Positions 1 to 61,280 of a stretch of 64,000 bases of DNA are shown here, piece by piece (position 1 is the first letter of the stretch; each line of letters begins with the position of its first letter). Made by a program: the position numbers and the translations under genes. Under the pieces are notes generated by a model, which made no database searches, had not been told where the DNA came from, and was given only the letters and a program-made list of their open reading frames with translations. This DNA is from Escherichia coli (lineage in GTDB: Bacteria; Pseudomonadota; Gammaproteobacteria; Enterobacterales; Enterobacteriaceae): the NCBI GenBank assembly GCA_002099625.1, contig GCA_002099625.1_4857.1, one strand, 5' to 3'.

Positions 1-83
1 AGCGCTAGGATTACTTGGTCTGTACATGATGCTTACCTTTTATAGTCGAGTTGGGGGAATTCAGATGAGGCTTTCTCATCTCA

Positions 84-104
84 CTTAGATAATATCTATC
101 TGCG
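84..104. promoter_or_regulatory. Copy 1 of recurring near-palindromic motif TAGATAATATCTATCT(G/C)AG
   Basis: tagataatatctatctg at 86-102; same core recurs at 22046, 53698 and 61262, always intergenic and 25-60 bp upstream of a gene start. Confidence 0.45.
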
Positions 105-1679: not shown

Positions 1680-2710
1680 ATGGCATCATGATAGTTACAC
1701 TCAACGTACCACACCCCTACTGGTTTCCGTTTCGGAGGACTTAACCAGACACCATACGTCCAAGGTCGACGCTTAGGTGTGTTATCAGTTGCCTGACTGG
1801 AAATCTCTTACGAGACGTCTACGTTGAACCGGCAAGCCGGCCATGATGTGAAGATGGGGGAACGCCCAGGCTTCCGCCCAGTCGAGTGAGGTACGAATCC
1901 TTCACTCCTGTCATCACTGATGGTGACAGCGCTCCCATTGTAAGGTGCCGGTGCATCCCGGCGTGTGTTAGTGCATTCAGCTCCCTCGGGCTTATCTGCG
2001 GCAACACGTTGCCCGGCGCACCGACATATACCACAGTAACCTCGTAAAGTCACTCTGGTATTGTTCGTTGCATACTACTAAGTTATCACGTAAACGATTT
2101 CACCACTTCCAATAATTAACCTAAATTCATTTCTGAATGCGGGTGATGGACTTCTTCTTCTGAGCCTGGCCGTAAGGTCAGGTCTTAGCGTCTCCAAGCA
2201 CCACCCGCTATCACGTACATTCGTGGCGTACCGGCCGTATGAGGTACCGCGCCTACGGTGACACACAGTCACCCTAACACTGGGAACTCAATCCCATTCG
2301 GTTATCAGATTGTGGATTTACAGGCGTAGCGTGGCGGCTTAATGGGCCGGTGCTTGCCTGTCCCCTAGGGACGGTTGTCGTGGAGACGCCAGTCTGTAAG
2401 TGGGGCCCTTGCGGGAAAACCCATCGCCTGTAAACCAAACATGATTGAATACCCAGAACCGGACGTTGGAAATCAACATCCTGATGTACTGGAGTATTTC
2501 ATGCATAAACGTGTCTCGTATCGAATGAGGTTATGACCGGTCAGATACCCAGCATCCTGTACAAGCGACCTGGTGCTTTGTGTACCTGGCTGCTACGGAT
2601 TTATCGGCTTACCGTAGGTCTAAGCTACTACCGGCTCATGCGGGACATCAACCCGCACAATCTGAGTAAGTATCACGGCTCGAATAGGGTTAGTGGGCCG
2701 AAGCCCACTG
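1680..2710 (-). other. About 1 kb of GC-rich non-coding DNA, candidate structured RNA
   Basis: Only short ORFs (60-81 aa) without ribosome-binding sites; flanked by tRNA-like genes and a small CDS in the same orientation; hairpin gggccgaagcccac near 2695. Confidence 0.25.
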
Positions 2711-7109: not shown

Positions 7110-7181
7110 TGGGTAAAATCTCCTTCAGGTATACTCTCAGTATGATAACATATATCCGTAAATTTTTAGAGGTTTAGTGCC

Positions 7182-8558
7182 ATGTCTGAACTGGTTTATG
7201 ATTTCAGTACCGGTTGTTATCGCGATACCGGAGTGAAGGTTGCCGTCGAATCATTCGGACGTGACCCATTCTTCGACGATGACACGTATTCTACGGGCTT
7301 GTACTACGACTATGGTTTTGGCGGCTACGTCCCGATGGGTTTGGTGGTTGCTGCAGAAGCCATGAAGAATGACCGATTACGTAAAGTGTTTGACGAATGC
7401 TTTAAACACGTCGTAATCGATCGTCGTTTTGCAAAGCAAATTCAACTTCACGTGGATAACATTCTTAAACGTGAAGGCAATGTGGAGTGGCTAGGGTCTA
7501 ACCTGCTAGGTGTCCACACTATCCGTTTTTACGATTCTGACCGTAACCGCTTTTTTGAAGATGTCTTGAAAGTGGATGAAGATTATCTGTTCGAGATGAT
7601 TAAAGAATCGGGTACGATTAACACCGACTGGGCAGTGGCTGGTGATCCGTATAACCTCTCTACGGTGTATACTCTACATCGAATGATGTCGAAATTCGCC
7701 GATCGTGAAATCCACGCCGCGGCTGTATCGTTAGTAACGCTTCTGCAATTCAAATTCTACTCCAGTATATATTACCACTTCTTCCCCAAGCCGGTCGACA
7801 TGGCCGCTGCCGACGCTGCGTATTCAATGCTGTCGTTAAAGTTCGATATTCGACGTTTAGGTAACTGGGGCTTGCACATGCAGGAGCGTTCAGAATACTT
7901 CTGTTCCCCAGAGTACCCAAACTACGATGCGGTTAAACGCTTCGATACGCCGGATTTGGTGCTGCGCTTCATCACCGACTTGAACACCCGTACCAAACAA
8001 ACCGTGAAGGACTATTACGCGGTACTGGACAAAGTACGTCGCGATAATAGCCGTGTGATTACGCAGTCAACTCGTATAGAGTTAGACGGCGAATCGATTA
8101 TTCGCGACAAAGTGGGTGCGCTGGATATCGCTAAGCAGAATCTGTTCGATGCGTCTTACGATATCAACAATCTTTACAAAGAGCAATTAGCAAAAGTGGT
8201 GTTGGAGCTAGTACCCAAAGCATCTCCCGCGGCACTGAAAACTTTGCTGGCGTATATTGCAAGTCTACCGCTTGGCAAAAAGCGTGATGAAATTAACGCT
8301 ATCATGGAGGACACGCTATCGCACGCGTTCGACGAAGTTGTTACCTCTCGTCTGAACTTTAACGACGCGAGTACGGTTCTGCTGCGTATGCGTTCGTTGT
8401 ATCAGGCCTCGAAGTCCCCCAACCCGTACGTGTTATCGTTACGTGAACGGATTGAGAAACTGGCTGCACGAGAAACACATATCCGTCATGAAGCCGCCTT
8501 GGCCGCTTTGCGTAATGCGTTGTTGTTGTACTTCTTGATCCGCTCTTTGCAGAAGTAA
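7182..8558 (+). CDS. Hypothetical protein (458 aa)
   Basis: Long ORF on the plus strand ending at a strong terminator. Confidence 0.7.
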   Translation: MSELVYDFSTGCYRDTGVKVAVESFGRDPFFDDDTYSTGLYYDYGFGGYVPMGLVVAAEAMKNDRLRKVFDECFKHVVIDRRFAKQIQLHVDNILKREGNVEWLGSNLLGVHTIRFYDSDRNRFFEDVLKVDEDYLFEMIKESGTINTDWAVAGDPYNLSTVYTLHRMMSKFADREIHAAAVSLVTLLQFKFYSSIYYHFFPKPVDMAAADAAYSMLSLKFDIRRLGNWGLHMQERSEYFCSPEYPNYDAVKRFDTPDLVLRFITDLNTRTKQTVKDYYAVLDKVRRDNSRVITQSTRIELDGESIIRDKVGALDIAKQNLFDASYDINNLYKEQLAKVVLELVPKASPAALKTLLAYIASLPLGKKRDEINAIMEDTLSHAFDEVVTSRLNFNDASTVLLRMRSLYQASKSPNPYVLSLRERIEKLAARETHIRHEAALAALRNALLLYFLIRSLQK

Positions 8559-16095: not shown

Positions 16096-16152
16096 GAGTA
16101 TGATCCTTAGTATGACCATCAGGTCTTTAAGACGAATATATGGAGACGTTCC

Positions 16153-18198
16153 ATGACTTTTATTCCACGAAACGGCGCGCCGTTGAATAACAAGCAAGGT
16201 TGGCAGGATAACTCTGTCCCCGAGCTTGTGCGTACCCCTACGGGTGACGCAATTCATAAGCCGCTGATCTTCACCTTTGCCGCGCGCGGGGTAGACAACG
16301 AGGCGTTCCCGTTAACCGGGGATAATGCACTGTCTCTGCTTGGTCGCAATGTCTTTGACTTGCGAGGCCCCTACGCGACGTTCAACACGCCCTATCAGGC
16401 GATGTTCAACGCTAACGCAAACGAGTGTATGTATCAGCGCTTGATCCCTGAAGATGCGAAAACCGCAAGTGTTCGCGTATTCGCCGACGTACTCGAAACG
16501 AAAGTTCCGTCCTACGAACGCGACAGCAACGGGATCGTTCAGTACGACAACTCGGGCAAGCCCAAGATCAAAGAACAAGTTGACGGTTTGGTAATCGTCT
16601 TCCGTTCTGTCGTAATCGACGAAACTACCCCGGCCATCGGCGCAGGTGTGGTTATCGAGGGGACGATGACTGGCGAAGGCGGCACGAAATCGAAGCTGTA
16701 TCCGTTGTTCGATATCGCAGGCCCGTATGCGGGTGCTGACGTCAACGGTTTCGGTTTCAAACTGATCCCACTCAGCGAGAAATCCAGCCCGGCTCTGACC
16801 TCCTCCTATCAAAATGAAGTCGGTGGTCGTGTTTACACCCTGCAATGGTTCGAAACCCTGGCAGGCGTGACTTCTCCGGTAGTGTGGAAAACTCTCACTG
16901 GCATGAGTAGCATCAATTTTAGCTTTAAGCCCGATGCATACTATCAGCCGATGAGAACGCAACTCGACTTCGAAGTTGTTGTTGCGGATGCATATCGTCA
17001 GACGATGCCTGACATTGGCGAGCTGCCAGATTATGGTCCTTTCGAGCAGTTCTATCTGTATCGCGAGAACCTGGAAACTGTACTGGGCTTGGCTCAGGCC
17101 GCTATCACAACTGATGCGCCTGCTGACCCGTATATGGTTGACATCTTTGGCGGCTATGATTTACTGGGCCAGCCTTACGATGGTCTTCAGGTAAACCCGG
17201 CTACTGAAACCGGTAAAGTTGTGTTCTCCGCATCCAACATCCACTACCTGCAAGGTGGTAGCGATGGTACCATGAACAACGACGTTTACGACGAACTCGT
17301 TCGCCGTGAAATGCTGCTGTTCCCGGATGGCGGTAAAGTCCGTTACGACAACGAGCTGAAATACTCGCTGGGTTGTTTCTGGGACTCTGGCTTTAGCTTC
17401 GATACTAAAGCTGCGCTCGTGAACTTCATCGGTCGTTCACGTAACACCTTCTTGACGCTGGCGACTCACGTTCACAACCAAGGTCGTAACGATGAGCAGA
17501 CAGAAGAAAGTGCAAAAATCGCCCTGATCGAATTGATCACTGCGGTACCGGAATCTGCCTATTACGGTACTCCGGCTGCACGTGGTATGGTCACTGGCCA
17601 ATCGGCGTTCATCAAGAACTCTTCCTACAAGAAGCCTGTTCCGATGAACTATTCCCTGGCGAACTTCTTCTCGAAGTACCTGGGTGCTGCTGAAGGTCGT
17701 GCAAAACCGGCTTATCGTTTCAGCCGTGGCGAACTGACGATTATCGAAGATCTGACTGACCTGAGTATGCCGTGGAAAGGCAACGAAGTGTATGCATCTG
17801 ACTGGGATGTGTCGCTGATCACTGCCCGTTCCTACGACTACTATCGCTTGTTCATTCCGGCGATTCAGTCAATCTACAGCGAAGATCGTTCTGTACTGAA
17901 CAACGCCCTGTTCAACTTCATGATGACCTACGTCTATCGTGTTTCCGACCGTGTATGGGCGGACATGTCTGGCGAAGCGGCCATGACGGATGATGAACGT
18001 GCGAAGATGATTGAGAACAAAATTATCGAACGTCTGGAAGGCCGTCTCGATAACGTTGCTGTTGTCACTCCGAAGGCGTACTTCACTGCAGACGATAAAT
18101 CCAATGGTTACTCTGTGACGCTGGACCTGATCGCTGAAGGCGGTGTGCTGCTCACCCAGTTCAACACCACTATCAAAGTTTACCGTCGGGAGAGCTAA
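16153..18198 (+). CDS. Putative tail sheath protein (681 aa)
   Basis: Codon usage typical of highly expressed genes; size and gene order (followed after 3 nt by a 291-aa gene, then a strong terminator) fit a sheath-tube pair; functional call is inference only. Confidence 0.4.
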   Translation: MTFIPRNGAPLNNKQGWQDNSVPELVRTPTGDAIHKPLIFTFAARGVDNEAFPLTGDNALSLLGRNVFDLRGPYATFNTPYQAMFNANANECMYQRLIPEDAKTASVRVFADVLETKVPSYERDSNGIVQYDNSGKPKIKEQVDGLVIVFRSVVIDETTPAIGAGVVIEGTMTGEGGTKSKLYPLFDIAGPYAGADVNGFGFKLIPLSEKSSPALTSSYQNEVGGRVYTLQWFETLAGVTSPVVWKTLTGMSSINFSFKPDAYYQPMRTQLDFEVVVADAYRQTMPDIGELPDYGPFEQFYLYRENLETVLGLAQAAITTDAPADPYMVDIFGGYDLLGQPYDGLQVNPATETGKVVFSASNIHYLQGGSDGTMNNDVYDELVRREMLLFPDGGKVRYDNELKYSLGCFWDSGFSFDTKAALVNFIGRSRNTFLTLATHVHNQGRNDEQTEESAKIALIELITAVPESAYYGTPAARGMVTGQSAFIKNSSYKKPVPMNYSLANFFSKYLGAAEGRAKPAYRFSRGELTIIEDLTDLSMPWKGNEVYASDWDVSLITARSYDYYRLFIPAIQSIYSEDRSVLNNALFNFMMTYVYRVSDRVWADMSGEAAMTDDERAKMIENKIIERLEGRLDNVAVVTPKAYFTADDKSNGYSVTLDLIAEGGVLLTQFNTTIKVYRRES

Positions 18199-20440: not shown

Positions 20441-21112
20441 TTAATCGTGTGAAAGACGAGCTTCGAGGTCGTCGATAATGGTATCTGTGAAATAGCTAAT
20501 ATCTAGCTGCTCCACGAAATCCCTGCGTTCCAGAATGCGCTCTGCGAAGAGCGTACCGTACCAACTAGGGACATTACTAACACCGTTGCGTCCGAACTTC
20601 TGTTGGACGTGACCAACGGCATGGAATTTTGCATCGCCTTTACTTTTACCCTGTTCACGGGCAAACAGATAAGAACGGTGCATGTAATTGCTCACGTCAT
20701 CTACAGACGGTATACCACGGTCAGCTGCGGCAACTATCTCAGAGACAATCCCGTTGTAGTTCCCTTTGTGAGAACTGCGGTGTTCTAAGACTGCATGGGC
20801 AATCGTCAAACATTCATCATCGGTAAGTTTATACTTACGTTTGAGCACTGGCTTGTTATCCAGTATCCAGCTATACCCTTTGATGTGGTGCGACGCACGG
20901 TCTTCTTTGGTAGAGAAGATATCGTGAGCTGCCACCGCAATCAGTATCAGCTTCAGGTGTTCGGTTTGCCCAAGCATATACGCGATACGAATCGCATTTG
21001 ATTTAACTGAGTTGATGTGATCCATGCGATGCGCACTATCGGTATAACGATAGAAGTCGCGGAATTGACGAACCAGTTTTTCCCAAAGTTTGTTGAGTTC
21101 AGTGCCCTGCAT
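20441..21112 (-). CDS. HD-domain phosphohydrolase
   Basis: Motifs RMDHINSV ... LILIAVAAHDI ... HH match the H...HD metal-binding signature of HD phosphohydrolases. Confidence 0.6.
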   Translation of the reverse strand: MQGTELNKLWEKLVRQFRDFYRYTDSAHRMDHINSVKSNAIRIAYMLGQTEHLKLILIAVAAHDIFSTKEDRASHHIKGYSWILDNKPVLKRKYKLTDDECLTIAHAVLEHRSSHKGNYNGIVSEIVAAADRGIPSVDDVSNYMHRSYLFAREQGKSKGDAKFHAVGHVQQKFGRNGVSNVPSWYGTLFAERILERRDFVEQLDISYFTDTIIDDLEARLSHD

Positions 21113-21129
21113 GTAAATATTCCTTACGA

Positions 21130-21143
21130 TAATGGTCGATTAA
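21130..21143 (-). promoter_or_regulatory. Leader motif TTAATCGACCATTA, copy 1 (18 nt upstream of the HD gene start)
   Basis: Minus-strand leader ttaatcgaccattatcgtaaggaatatttac-ATG nearly identical to the leader at 22009-22022. Confidence 0.4.
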
Positions 21144-21146
21144 CTA

Positions 21147-21536
21147 CTACGAGAATGTGTGATAACAACGTGTCAGTGTAACCTTCACGTTATCAGAATG
21201 GTCTTCGTTGGTATACACCACCGGCCAGATAATGTTATCAGACGAAAGCGCCTTTGATAACCCTTCAATCAATTCCTTCATTGAGGTTCCCTTCAGCCGA
21301 TGGGTCGTACGCCACCTGTGTGACGTCATACGGCTATAAACCACCATATCTGGTGTAAGGGTACTACTTTCCTCTTTAATCTCCTCTAAACGCTTCTCCT
21401 CGCTTTCTACGAAGCTTAGTAAAGCATCCGGATTTCGAACAAACTCACCGAAACGATCGTCTCGGCGCAAGCCACAAAGAACCCATAGCGTGAATGGGTC
21501 TCTGCACGCATCTACTAACCCCTCTGCGATTTTCAT
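21147..21536 (-). CDS. Hypothetical protein (129 aa)
   Basis: ORF in co-directional block. Confidence 0.55.
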   Translation of the reverse strand: MKIAEGLVDACRDPFTLWVLCGLRRDDRFGEFVRNPDALLSFVESEEKRLEEIKEESSTLTPDMVVYSRMTSHRWRTTHRLKGTSMKELIEGLSKALSSDNIIWPVVYTNEDHSDNVKVTLTRCYHTFS

Positions 21537-21590
21537 TTTATTCCTTCCTACACAGTCAAAGGATTTGTACGATTCGTGATTTTTGAGAGA

Positions 21591-21989
21591 TCAGATTAGC
21601 TGCTCAGCGCGCAAACGTCTCAAAGTGTTCGTTGCTGTAACAAGAACATCTTGCAGTTCTTGCATTGCTTTACCAACAAAGAACGGTTTAAGATGCAGGT
21701 CGCTAGTGATGAGTCCGCCGTATTTGTACGGTAGGTCTGTAATATCACAGACGATGGGATTTTTTGCTCGCCACTCTTCATCAGCAACGAGAATAAGAAA
21801 CTTCCAGGCGTCTTGATTGCCGAGCGATTCACCGGTTTCTGGCTTGTAGAGTTCTTTTAAACGTTTATCGCGCTCGGAGATAAGGTATTCGTCATCAGTC
21901 AACAGACGAATTAAATCGGCTTCGTTGCTCTCGGCTTTAGCACAAAGCATCATGGCAACAAACGGGTCTTGGCGTAGTTGGTTAGTCAT
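21591..21989 (-). CDS. Hypothetical protein (132 aa)
   Basis: ORF; GAAGGAG ribosome-binding site before ATG at 21989. Confidence 0.55.
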   Translation of the reverse strand: MTNQLRQDPFVAMMLCAKAESNEADLIRLLTDDEYLISERDKRLKELYKPETGESLGNQDAWKFLILVADEEWRAKNPIVCDITDLPYKYGGLITSDLHLKPFFVGKAMQELQDVLVTATNTLRRLRAEQLI

Positions 21990-22008
21990 TGTAAATACTC
22001 CTTCTGGG

Positions 22009-22022
22009 TAATGGTCGATTAA
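22009..22022 (-). promoter_or_regulatory. Leader motif TTAATCGACCATTA, copy 2
   Basis: Minus-strand leader ttaatcgaccattacccagaaggagtatttaca-ATG, 20 nt upstream of the ATG at 21989. Confidence 0.4.
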
Positions 22023-22045
22023 AGCGTTAACGTGTAACGCTCACC

Positions 22046-22064
22046 TAAGTAATATATATCTCAG
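22046..22064. promoter_or_regulatory. Copy 2 of recurring near-palindromic motif (taagtaatatatatctcag)
   Basis: Intergenic, about 55 bp upstream of the minus-strand gene start at 21989. Confidence 0.45.
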
Positions 22065-22135
22065 TTCTTTTTGAATGCAATTAATAAAATAAAAAGACTC
22101 ACCCGTATCCGAAGATAGGATGAGCCTAGTGGAGC

Positions 22136-45099: not shown

Positions 45100-45867
45100 T
45101 TATTTGTAGTTAACCGTATACGGCGCGCCCTGCTTAGTAAAGCCAACCGTCAGCTTGCTCGCCTCTTTCTTTACCCATGCGGGTAATTCTTCACGGAATG
45201 CCGGGTTCAAGAACCAAATCTGCTCATAGCGCCCGTCAATCTTTTCAACAACACGTTCCCAACCTTCGACGTACGTCAACGAGAACCATTTAAAACGCGC
45301 ATGGCGTGCCCAGTAGTGGTATTCGATGGTTCGACCGACGTGAGTCAAGACATCAATCAGAACTTGGTAGAAGCTCGGCTTTCCGATGACATGGGTATAC
45401 TCGAAGATAACAGATTCTTCGCCAGGGACGAAGTTATCTTCAAAATTCTTCTCCCCTGCTAAAGGTACCATTATCGTGTCGTTGTTGATACACAGCAACC
45501 AGTGCTTATTCGAAAATATCGGCGTGTCGCCCGAGAAACGAGCCCAGCGATAATTTTCAATCGCGACGCCAATCTGTGGCCGTAGTGTATCGACCACCTT
45601 CGCTATCGCTGCAGGATCTATCGGCTCATAGACCAGACAAATCGCTTGCACTTGCTCTCTTTCCTGCTCAGGTTCCGCAGGTCGTGGTCGCCGCCCCAGC
45701 ATCAAAATCCCACTAAGATTAGTTTCCCCAATCTCAATGATTTCTATTTCGCTAGTAGGAAGCTGCCGTTTAGCGTCCTCCATGTCGACGGCCCCTAATA
45801 ACCCGTATTCGTAGTCGTCGAATTCCACTGTGTAGAATTCATCGGAGAACGCAAAGAGTTTCATCAT
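45100..45867 (-). CDS. Hypothetical protein (255 aa)
   Basis: ORF in block. Confidence 0.6.
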   Translation of the reverse strand: MMKLFAFSDEFYTVEFDDYEYGLLGAVDMEDAKRQLPTSEIEIIEIGETNLSGILMLGRRPRPAEPEQEREQVQAICLVYEPIDPAAIAKVVDTLRPQIGVAIENYRWARFSGDTPIFSNKHWLLCINNDTIMVPLAGEKNFEDNFVPGEESVIFEYTHVIGKPSFYQVLIDVLTHVGRTIEYHYWARHARFKWFSLTYVEGWERVVEKIDGRYEQIWFLNPAFREELPAWVKKEASKLTVGFTKQGAPYTVNYK

Positions 45868-45868
45868 C

Positions 45869-46132
45869 TTATTTCTCCATTGTTTTAAAGAGAACGTCTA
45901 CGCTGTTACGGAGCATATTCAATTCTTCTTCTTTCTTACGCAGCAGCATTTCAGGAGCGTTCTTTGCAAACTCTTTCAATGCCATTTGGACGACATGCGA
46001 ATCGGTTTCGTCCGGGAACAGGGCCTTTAATGCAACCCATTCTTCCGCCGTGAAAACATCGCCTTTGCGAACATTACGCTGTTGTGGTAGTCGAATTGTT
46101 TTACTGAGTCGGTCAGTCATAGCTCCACCCAA
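45869..46132 (-). CDS. Hypothetical protein (87 aa)
   Basis: ORF in block. Confidence 0.45.
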   Translation of the reverse strand: MGGAMTDRLSKTIRLPQQRNVRKGDVFTAEEWVALKALFPDETDSHVVQMALKEFAKNAPEMLLRKKEEELNMLRNSVDVLFKTMEK

Positions 46133-53697: not shown

Positions 53698-53716
53698 TAG
53701 ATAATATCTGTCTGAG
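53698..53716. promoter_or_regulatory. Copy 3 of recurring near-palindromic motif (tagataatatctgtctgag)
   Basis: In a 76-bp divergent intergenic region between the minus gene start at 53664 and the plus gene start at 53741. Confidence 0.5.
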
Positions 53717-61261: not shown

Positions 61262-61280
61262 TAGATAATATCTATCTCAG
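61262..61280. promoter_or_regulatory. Copy 4 of recurring near-palindromic motif (tagataatatctatctcag)
   Basis: Intergenic between minus-strand genes, upstream of the start at 61228. Confidence 0.5.

Follow-up and report, generated by a model that had tools for sequence, protein, structure and literature searches.

The window analysed here, a 64,000-nucleotide (nt) stretch of contig GCA_002099625.1_4857.1 in an assembly deposited as Escherichia coli (GenBank GCA_002099625.1), contains two minus-strand genes whose leaders share an exact 14-mer, TTAATCGACCATTA, referred to below as the box. One of the genes is labelled in related phages as encoding an HD-domain protein and the other encodes a protein of 132 amino acids (aa). 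It was found that the box belongs to a family of about 14 copies in the ~240-kb genome of Salmonella phage 1252, the closest complete genome, and that each copy lies on the sense strand just 5' of the Shine-Dalgarno sequence (SD) of the downstream gene. This recurrence at the same gene-start position, together with a core kept across phage genera, identifies the shared sequence as a selected cis-element rather than a coincidence. As argued below, we tentatively favour a role for the box in the mRNA, next to the ribosome-binding site (RBS).

The leader box and its family

Over the 2.6 kb around both leaders, the window shares 99.8% identity with Salmonella phage 1252 and 98% with SPN3US, and by this identity it is DNA of an SPN3US-like (Seoulvirus) giant Salmonella phage. 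SPN3US is the type of Seoulvirus, and the group consists of jumbo phages of ~240 kb that are relatives of phiKZ and have two multisubunit RNA polymerases (RNAPs).

Copy A of the box (21130-21143, minus strand) ends 17 nt ahead of the HD start codon and 4 nt ahead of the SD, in the context TTAATCGACCATTA-tcgt-AAGGAA-tatttac-ATG; the SD AAGGAA (21120-21125), spacer and ATG (21110-21112) together occupy 21110-21125 on the minus strand. It begins 3 nt past the stop codon of an intervening 129-aa gene and stands alone, with no promoter motif, hairpin or terminator in front of it. Copy B (22009-22022, minus strand) ends 19 nt ahead of the start codon of the 132-aa gene and 5 nt ahead of its SD, in the context TTAATCGACCATTA-cccag-AAGGAG-tatttaca-ATG, where the SD AAGGAG (21998-22003), spacer and ATG (21987-21989) span 21987-22003 (minus strand) and follow the generic RBS style of the phage. 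No further copy with fewer than three mismatches is present elsewhere in the window. The earlier note had described a near-identical leader of about 35 nt in front of the two genes. The box part of that description is confirmed by the two exact copies, and about half of the leader, namely the SD and spacer (AAGGAgyATTTAc, with the AAGGAgTATTTAC part), is the generic RBS, which is also present at genes lacking the box and has the consensus tAAGGAg over all genes. The intervening 129-aa gene does have a different leader, as had been proposed, containing only a weak look-alike, AATCGTAC (21567-21574, minus strand). This look-alike sits ~18 nt before the SD of the 129-aa gene, and leaders of Erwinia phage Kwan repeat AATCGTAAGGAG-type variants.

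The bare exact 14-mer pair is not unusual in this DNA, since the window contains 21 same-strand 14-mer pairs compared to ~11 in second-order Markov shuffles. It is the position that is non-random, and the significance of the pair rests on both copies standing in register before start codons and on the genome-wide family. The 14/14 identity between copies A and B is a local single-nucleotide state; the family consensus has Y at the position concerned. Phage 1252 and SPN3US have TTAATCGACTATTA as copy B (T at position 10), and about 24 more relatives show a single-base difference from the window across the 80-nt leader, presumably also there. Escherichia phage EC001 is the only full-length 100% match to the 80-nt leader among the matches listed. 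The copy-B box of the window matches EC001 but its 132-aa protein matches phage 1252, which points to mosaicism among close relatives.

The whole phage 1252 genome was scanned with a matrix built from the box sites themselves. The Seoulvirus consensus is yTAATCGACyATTA, with a core across genera of (T)CGACY, and the copies were located at record positions 7475, 8286, 15981, 45600, 64870, 66331, 67085, 118069, 118950, 119898, 175640 (copy B), 176519 (copy A), 198707 and 218145. At a threshold of at least 17 bits there were 13 matches, 11 of which end 11-19 nt before a start codon in the sense orientation; only ~1% of positions qualify for such placement, giving a binomial P of ~2e-20. At a threshold of at least 16 bits there were 14 matches compared to 1.0 in Markov shuffles, a comparison that is partly circular as the matrix derives from the same sites. 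Independently of the matrix, AATCGAC was found in 11 upstream regions, an 11-fold enrichment. Nearly all of the ~14 copies are placed 0-5 nt before the SD, with one at 24 nt. No general consensus was found upstream of tAAGGAg across all genes, and the idea that the box is a general extension of the RBS was accordingly rejected. A pattern scan of IMG/VR returned mostly chance matches, the informative ones being SPN3US itself and one 246-kb relative.

The box-bearing genes are non-structural, mostly small and without a Pfam match, except for one that encodes a Cro/C1-type helix-turn-helix (HTH) protein. The earlier note had called for a genome-wide search and had named a motif found nowhere else in the genome or in relatives as grounds for abandoning its proposal; about 14 copies ahead of start codons in phage 1252, and representatives in four phage genera, were found instead. 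Its proposal that the element co-regulates the HD and 132-aa genes is partly supported, in that the element is shared and co-regulatory in design, but it is not private to this pair and marks a larger set of early genes.

Orthologous leaders were compared across related phages. The HD leader reads CTCGACCATTA-tcgt-AAGGAA in SPAsTU, ATTCGACCATTA-ccttt-AGGAA in Asesino and ATCCGACCATTA-ccttt-AGGAA in phiEaH2. In SNUABM_43 the HD gene overlaps its upstream neighbour and its leader lacks the box, and in Kwan the HD gene is itself the first cistron of the operon, with a promoter, a hairpin and CTAATCGACTAATC. The leader of operon cistron 1 carries a promoter, a hairpin and TAATCGACTATTA in SPAsTU, ACTCGACTATAA in Asesino, TTCGACCATTAA in phiEaH2 and CAATCGACTATCA in SNUABM_43. 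Within the HD leader, the core CGACCATTA is kept in SPAsTU, Asesino and phiEaH2 and the core AATCGACTAATC in Kwan; the flanks differ, and the non-coding bases around the box show no relation from phage to phage. In the comparison of phage 1252 with Kwan, the core is kept at 5-6 of 10 orthologous leaders, at 20-64% protein identity and with randomized flanks. The retention of the core at orthologous leaders while the surroundings diverge indicates that the box is under selection.

No box was found in the inspected leaders of Cronobacter phage CR5, nor in 50 kb of Klebsiella phage Miami. On the sequences compared, the box is specific to the lineage of Seoulvirus, Erskinevirus, Machinavirus and Wellingtonvirus, and its absence from the inspected CR5 leaders and the 50 kb of Miami points to a phage factor rather than a host factor. 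The box was also considered as a variant of a Miami promoter (AAATCGATATTACC); this was rejected, as only ATATTAC recurs in the 50 kb of Miami and the ATCG part does not.

The early-gene cassette and its locus

Copy B closes what is, at the sequence level, a full module of terminator, early promoter, 5' hairpin, box and SD. An intrinsic-terminator-like hairpin, CTCATCCTATC-TTCG-GATACGGGTGAG followed by a T-tract (22083-22124, minus strand), lies directly past the stop codon of a gene encoding an NT5C-like nucleotidase; it was missed by a simple terminator scan because its stem is bulged. The same terminator-like arrangement is seen at the sequence level in SPN3US, phage 1252, SPAsTU, Asesino and phiEaH2. 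It is followed by an early-promoter motif, AACTGAGATATATATTAC (22049-22066, minus strand), 26 nt upstream of copy B, and by a stem-loop predicted with RNAfold, AGCGTTA-cacgt-TAACGCT (22023-22041, minus strand), a few nt past the presumed transcript start GGTGAG. The earlier note mentioned neither the promoter motif nor the 5' hairpin of copy B, and this promoter is much better conserved than the box.

The promoter motif near copy B (AGATATATATTAC, also CTGAGATATATATTAC) belongs to a strongly conserved family, tttcAG-ATA[T/G]AT[A/G]TTA[C/T], with ~22-24 copies in phage 1252 and ~23 in Kwan. Almost all copies are intergenic and sense to the next gene, and one Kwan copy precedes a gene annotated as an RNAP beta subunit. 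Early promoters of jumbo phages are described (PMC7598289) as phage-specific AT-rich motifs of ~10 nt centred near -10. By its sequence and placement we infer that the motif at 22049-22066 is an early promoter of the virion RNAP (vRNAP); no sigma-70-type match was found at the cassette.

In phage 1252, eight of eight such cassettes are predicted to fold a hairpin at the same place with differing stems (z -2.0 to -7.9 compared to shuffles), and a hairpin at the same position is also present in Asesino, phiEaH2, SNUABM_43, SPAsTU and Kwan. Promoters of the sub-class that ends in TATTAC-yTAGGTGAG always precede a hairpin beginning at the presumed 5' end of the transcript. Hairpin and box accompany all six ATATATATTAC-type promoters of phage 1252 compared to 2 of 14 of the ATAGATATTAT type (Fisher P = 7e-4).

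Further early-promoter-like copies of the ATAGATATTAT / ATATATGTTAT type are present in the window at 61265-61275, 53701-53711, 7145-7155 and 89-99, all on the minus strand. Their leaders are short and lack the hairpin and box, the exception being that of 89-99, which has a hairpin and a weak box. The latter forms a weak third cassette at the window edge (25-99, minus strand), consisting of the promoter ATAGATATTAT (89-99), a 5' hairpin (63-81), the weak box CTCGACTATA (41-50) and an ATG (25-27), and its gene runs beyond the window. The Kwan ortholog of this gene, gp14, has a promoter, a hairpin and AATCGACTGATC.

Some leaders resemble attenuators, with a promoter, a 5' hairpin, a strong terminator-like hairpin with a U-tract, the box and the SD. 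These are located at 117996-118090 and 119816-119929 of the phage 1252 record and at 168881-169018 of the Kwan record. Such leaders are conserved between genera and may give short RNAs from the 5' untranslated region, like those of phage 201phi2-1 as reported in PMC11512511. A separate motif, TAGTATG, which resembles the phiKZ late motif T(-3)ATG(+1), was observed in the window at 16108-16114 (plus strand), 16937-16943 (minus strand) and 2071-2077 (minus strand), the first of these 38 nt before the start of the tail-sheath gene. It is 34-fold enriched in upstream regions of phage 1252 (five copies), mostly before large or structural genes, and judged by this distribution it is likely a late-promoter class of this phage.

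Every gene at the locus is on the minus strand. In the SPN3US annotation a head protease is followed by three small genes (one of them NT5C-like), the 132-aa gene, the 129-aa gene, the 'putative HD domain protein' and another three small genes, beyond which lie the tail tube and sheath genes in convergent orientation. The 132-aa gene (21591-21989, minus strand; SPN3US ACQ60_gp017) is operon cistron 1 and has no Pfam domain; its protein is 40% identical to Asesino gp271. The 129-aa gene (21147-21536, minus strand; ACQ60_gp016), with a leader lacking the box, is a distant paralog of the 132-aa gene. The paralogy was traced via Asesino gp271 and phiEaH2 gp169, and an N-terminal DPF motif is common to both. 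The HD gene (20441-21112, minus strand; 223 aa) is operon cistron 3, and its label, 'putative HD domain protein', is taken from relatives. Its protein has no Pfam match at E <= 0.01, and an H...HD-like motif (AAHD) is present; the HD assignment is from database annotation only. Among close relatives the 132-aa protein is only 90-96% identical where the HD protein is 99-100% identical, which makes the 132-aa gene a fast-evolving early gene. Near its left end, the window lacks ~1.1 kb that is present in phage 1252 (record ~193.6-198.7 kb).

The locus also shows a gene replacement between relatives. In an alignment of Asesino and phiEaH2, identity is ~95-100% through the terminator, promoter and hairpin, is lost precisely at box B and returns ~10 nt ahead of box A. 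A distant paralog has taken the place of the gene between the boxes, so that the replacement (aligned stretches 1880-2560 in Asesino and 1890-2560 in phiEaH2) is bounded by both boxes. Kwan and CR5 have nothing in the slot between the NT5C-like gene and the HD gene, Erskinevirus and SNUABM_43 have one gene there, and Seoulvirus has two paralogs.

Level of action and competing explanations

The shared sequence had been proposed to be a translational operator, an RNA-processing site or a promoter element; on the sequence evidence, a function at the level of RNA and connected with the RBS is somewhat favoured. In most Seoulvirus copies 3-5 nt separate the box from the SD, and in two there is no gap; box and SD are directly adjacent at positions 64870 and 67085 of phage 1252 and in Kwan TAATCGTAAGGAG. 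The distance from promoter to box varies, being 8, 26-29 or 40 nt, and some boxes have no promoter. Stand-alone boxes are present at internal cistrons, namely the HD gene and the HTH gene of SPAsTU, and the box is missing in SNUABM_43, where the HD gene is translationally coupled to its upstream neighbour. The tRNA cluster of Kwan has a TATG-type motif and no box. In every leader folded, the box was predicted to be unpaired and nothing conserved pairs with it, and a structure involving the box was rejected for this reason. In combination, these observations favour an RNA-level role linked to the RBS over one linked to the promoter.

Several other candidates were tried and rejected. An enhancer acting by pairing with 16S rRNA was rejected because the best duplex of the box with E. 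coli 16S rRNA (-8.9 kcal/mol) was no better than those of shuffled boxes (mean -10.4 kcal/mol; 44 of 60 shuffles at least as good). Searches of Rfam 15 gave only chance-level matches (E > 4), none of them at the leaders. The sole attractive candidate for a phage-encoded antisense RNA was an anti-box, UAGUAGUCGAUG, just before the terminator at the 3' end of phage 1252 gene 198733, and it is not conserved in the Kwan ortholog. An AR9-type late promoter, AACA-N6-TA, fits the Seoulvirus box superficially as AATC-N6-TA, but the AA is not conserved in the Erskinevirus copies.

The interpretation we favour, though tentatively, is that the box is an unpaired signal in the mRNA beside the RBS, read by a lineage-specific phage factor and serving the joint post-transcriptional control of an early regulon. 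The box would act within the mRNA as a linear element adjoining the RBS, and would be recognized by a sequence-specific factor peculiar to the phage lineage. This factor would repress or activate translation, or cleave RNA as an endoribonuclease, much as RegA and RegB of T4 act on early mRNAs. Early genes with a box, whether cistron 1 or internal, would in this way be switched jointly after transcription. As a side effect, short conserved boxes flanking genes would coincide with the borders of cassette swaps between related phages. A number of points weigh against this interpretation. The literature search found no map of transcription start sites (TSSs) for SPN3US-type phages, and the Kwan family is smaller and looser, with 7-14 nt between core and SD. 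No trans-acting factor was identified: an annotated 'ribonuclease' was rejected as a candidate because it carries an RNase H domain, and the RNase-related Pfam matches seen were limited to RNase H and Rv2179c-like exoribonuclease domains, in a proteome that was not screened for RegA/RegB-like proteins. The remaining points, taken up next, would suit action at the level of DNA, namely the resemblance of one half of the box to the promoter motif, its position directly after a terminator-like hairpin in two leaders and its near-palindromic form in Seoulvirus.

The box could instead be a second, later-acting promoter, for example of the non-virion RNAP, arranged in tandem with the early promoter at cistron 1 and acting alone at the HD gene, with transcription starting just 5' of the SD. 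We hold this to be rather unlikely. Tandem early (primary) and middle-type (secondary) TSSs are known at phiKZ gene 054 (PMC8244752). The 3' half of the box, yATTAy, resembles the TATTAC core of the promoter motif, and in the two promoter-hairpin-terminator-box leaders that are kept in Kwan the box is the sole conserved element between terminator and SD. The part conserved across genera, however, is CGACY and not the AT-rich half, and the box lacks the upstream half (cAGATA) of the promoter motif. A promoter role is also hard to square with the copies in which box and SD adjoin, since a start site beyond such a box would lose the SD. Moreover, the box was not found before replication, structural or tRNA genes, and it matches neither the middle (TACT at -22) nor the late (TATG) motif of phiKZ; a separate TAGTATG class exists. 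A different DNA-level explanation, which we consider improbable, is that the box is an operator for an early phage HTH regulator that blocks transcription 3' of early promoters and inside operons once early proteins accumulate. The Seoulvirus sequence TAATCGACyATTA is near-palindromic (TAAT-N5-ATTA, five of six symmetric pairs), as would suit a DNA-binding dimer, and in one copy, AATCGACGATT, the palindrome is perfect. The Cro/C1-type HTH protein (Pfam HTH_3, E = 2e-7), a candidate early regulator by its domain, is the product of a box-bearing first cistron whose leader retains the box in SPAsTU and in an IMG/VR relative; no HTH homolog was present among the matches listed for the Cronobacter phages, whose inspected leaders also lack the box. 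Many jumbo phages, including SPN3US relatives and phages of Klebsiella and Aeromonas, keep the HTH gene (45632-45997 in phage 1252; 94310-94672 in the SPN3US record, where its label is 'putative transcriptional regulator'). Against an operator, the symmetry is not kept in the Erskinevirus and Kwan copies, and the best conserved part is the asymmetric centre CGACY, although the centre should be least constrained in a dimer site. Position 9 is Y where symmetry would require G, the Kwan HTH ortholog lacks the box, and the HTH homologs of Miami and Aeromonas phage PS1 show no box in their own leaders. An operator would also have no reason to track the SD.

It is also conceivable, though very unlikely in our view, that the box has no regulatory role of its own and is the conserved junction of a mobile or recombining cassette, kept by recombination or gene conversion as in certain T4-type modules described below. 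The collapse of Asesino/phiEaH2 homology exactly at box B, its return ~10 nt before box A and the presence of 0, 1 or 2 genes in the slot between the NT5C-like and HD genes, depending on genus, are consistent with such a junction. However, the flanks of the boxes are not homogenized within one genome, indicating that gene conversion is not keeping the boxes alike, and stand-alone boxes persist at the same orthologous leaders down to ~56% protein identity and below, implying that selection acts on the box itself. Since only intact genes survive, breakpoints would be expected to fall at gene borders in any case. Finally, a chance repeat of a 14-mer in two AT-rich leaders would find some encouragement in the number of 14-mer pairs in the window, but it is ruled out for practical purposes by the genome-wide family, its positional enrichment and the conservation across genera.

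Relation to known systems and significance

In T4, the phage proteins RegA and RegB shut off many early mRNAs via a short site at or next to the RBS; the sequence cut by RegB is GGAG, and the sites of RegA are rich in AU and overlap the start codon AUG. The ~14 early genes described here similarly share a short site adjoining the RBS, with a function that is inferred only, but the box is unrelated in sequence and lies upstream of the SD. Lambda-type nut sites consist of boxA and a boxB hairpin in early leaders. The present cassettes likewise combine a hairpin with a conserved linear box in an early 5' leader; unlike at nut, the stems and loops of the hairpins vary freely, the box bears no resemblance to boxA and tracks the SD, it occurs alone without a hairpin at internal cistrons, and transcription is by phage polymerases. 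The 'epsilon' enhancer of T7 gene 10 is held to act via complementarity to 16S rRNA. Like epsilon, the box is a short conserved sequence directly 5' of the SD, and unlike epsilon it has no 16S complementarity beyond chance.

The closest resemblance is to a familiar kind of phage early-gene cassette. Promoter-early stem-loop (PeSL) cassettes have been described in T4-type phages (Arbiol et al. 2010, PMC2839356; Comeau et al. 2014, PMC4122927). The module studied here agrees with PeSL in being a short composite of terminator, promoter and stem-loop, with the terminator-like hairpin and T-tract at 22083-22124 recognized at the sequence level. It also agrees in having many copies in variable regions before small early genes, mostly of unknown function (non-essential for PeSL), and in the presence of replacement and indel borders at the modules, with one clear case (Asesino compared to phiEaH2) in addition to the slot of variable gene number. 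It differs from those descriptions in that the promoter is of a phage-polymerase type rather than strong and sigma-70-like, the hairpin 3' of the promoter is a 5'-terminal mRNA hairpin rather than a terminator, and there is an extra SD-tied linear box for which the PeSL descriptions available give no counterpart.

A second comparison is with phiKZ-type promoters. Like early (vRNAP) promoters of this type, AGATATATATTAC is a conserved, phage-specific AT-rich motif of ~10 nt before presumed early operons (PMC7598289, PMC8244752, PMC11512511). The box differs from such promoters in lying downstream of the motif in the transcribed leader, in having a core, CGACY, that contains G+C and in also occurring without a promoter; it also lacks the T(-3)ATG(+1) of the phiKZ-type late promoter (PMC7598289). 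A leader box of this kind is not mentioned in the available text of PMC7598289, PMC8244752 or PMC11512511. A full-text literature search for the promoter core sequence returned nothing relevant, and no description of an SD-linked box was found in the literature searched on jumbo-phage early expression. Repeated regulatory cassettes before phage early genes and jumbo-phage early promoter motifs are therefore already known as kinds, and the box itself appears to be undescribed within the literature searched.

The box provides a concrete, mutable target of 10-14 nt in SPN3US, for which a genetic system exists, and the anatomy of the cassette (terminator, early promoter, 5' hairpin, box and SD) can be put to direct use in the annotation of early operons and in engineering phages. 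The positions of the swap borders suggest a route by which these phages exchange small early genes. A more specific, speculative and on balance improbable idea is that the box serves as an 'address label' on some of the immediate-early mRNAs that nucleus-forming jumbo phages make, and that a factor encoded by the phage reads it to give these mRNAs privileged handling before the phage nucleus has formed. If this were true, such handling would be selective translation on phage-modified ribosomes, timed silencing or sorting from the early infection compartment, and a post-transcriptional regulon would be layered over the two-polymerase transcription programme. The expression of phiKZ-like jumbo phages is now described almost wholly by the promoter classes of two phage RNAPs. 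A promoter-independent, RBS-tied element at ~14 early genes and in four genera would point to a further layer of control, probably post-transcriptional.

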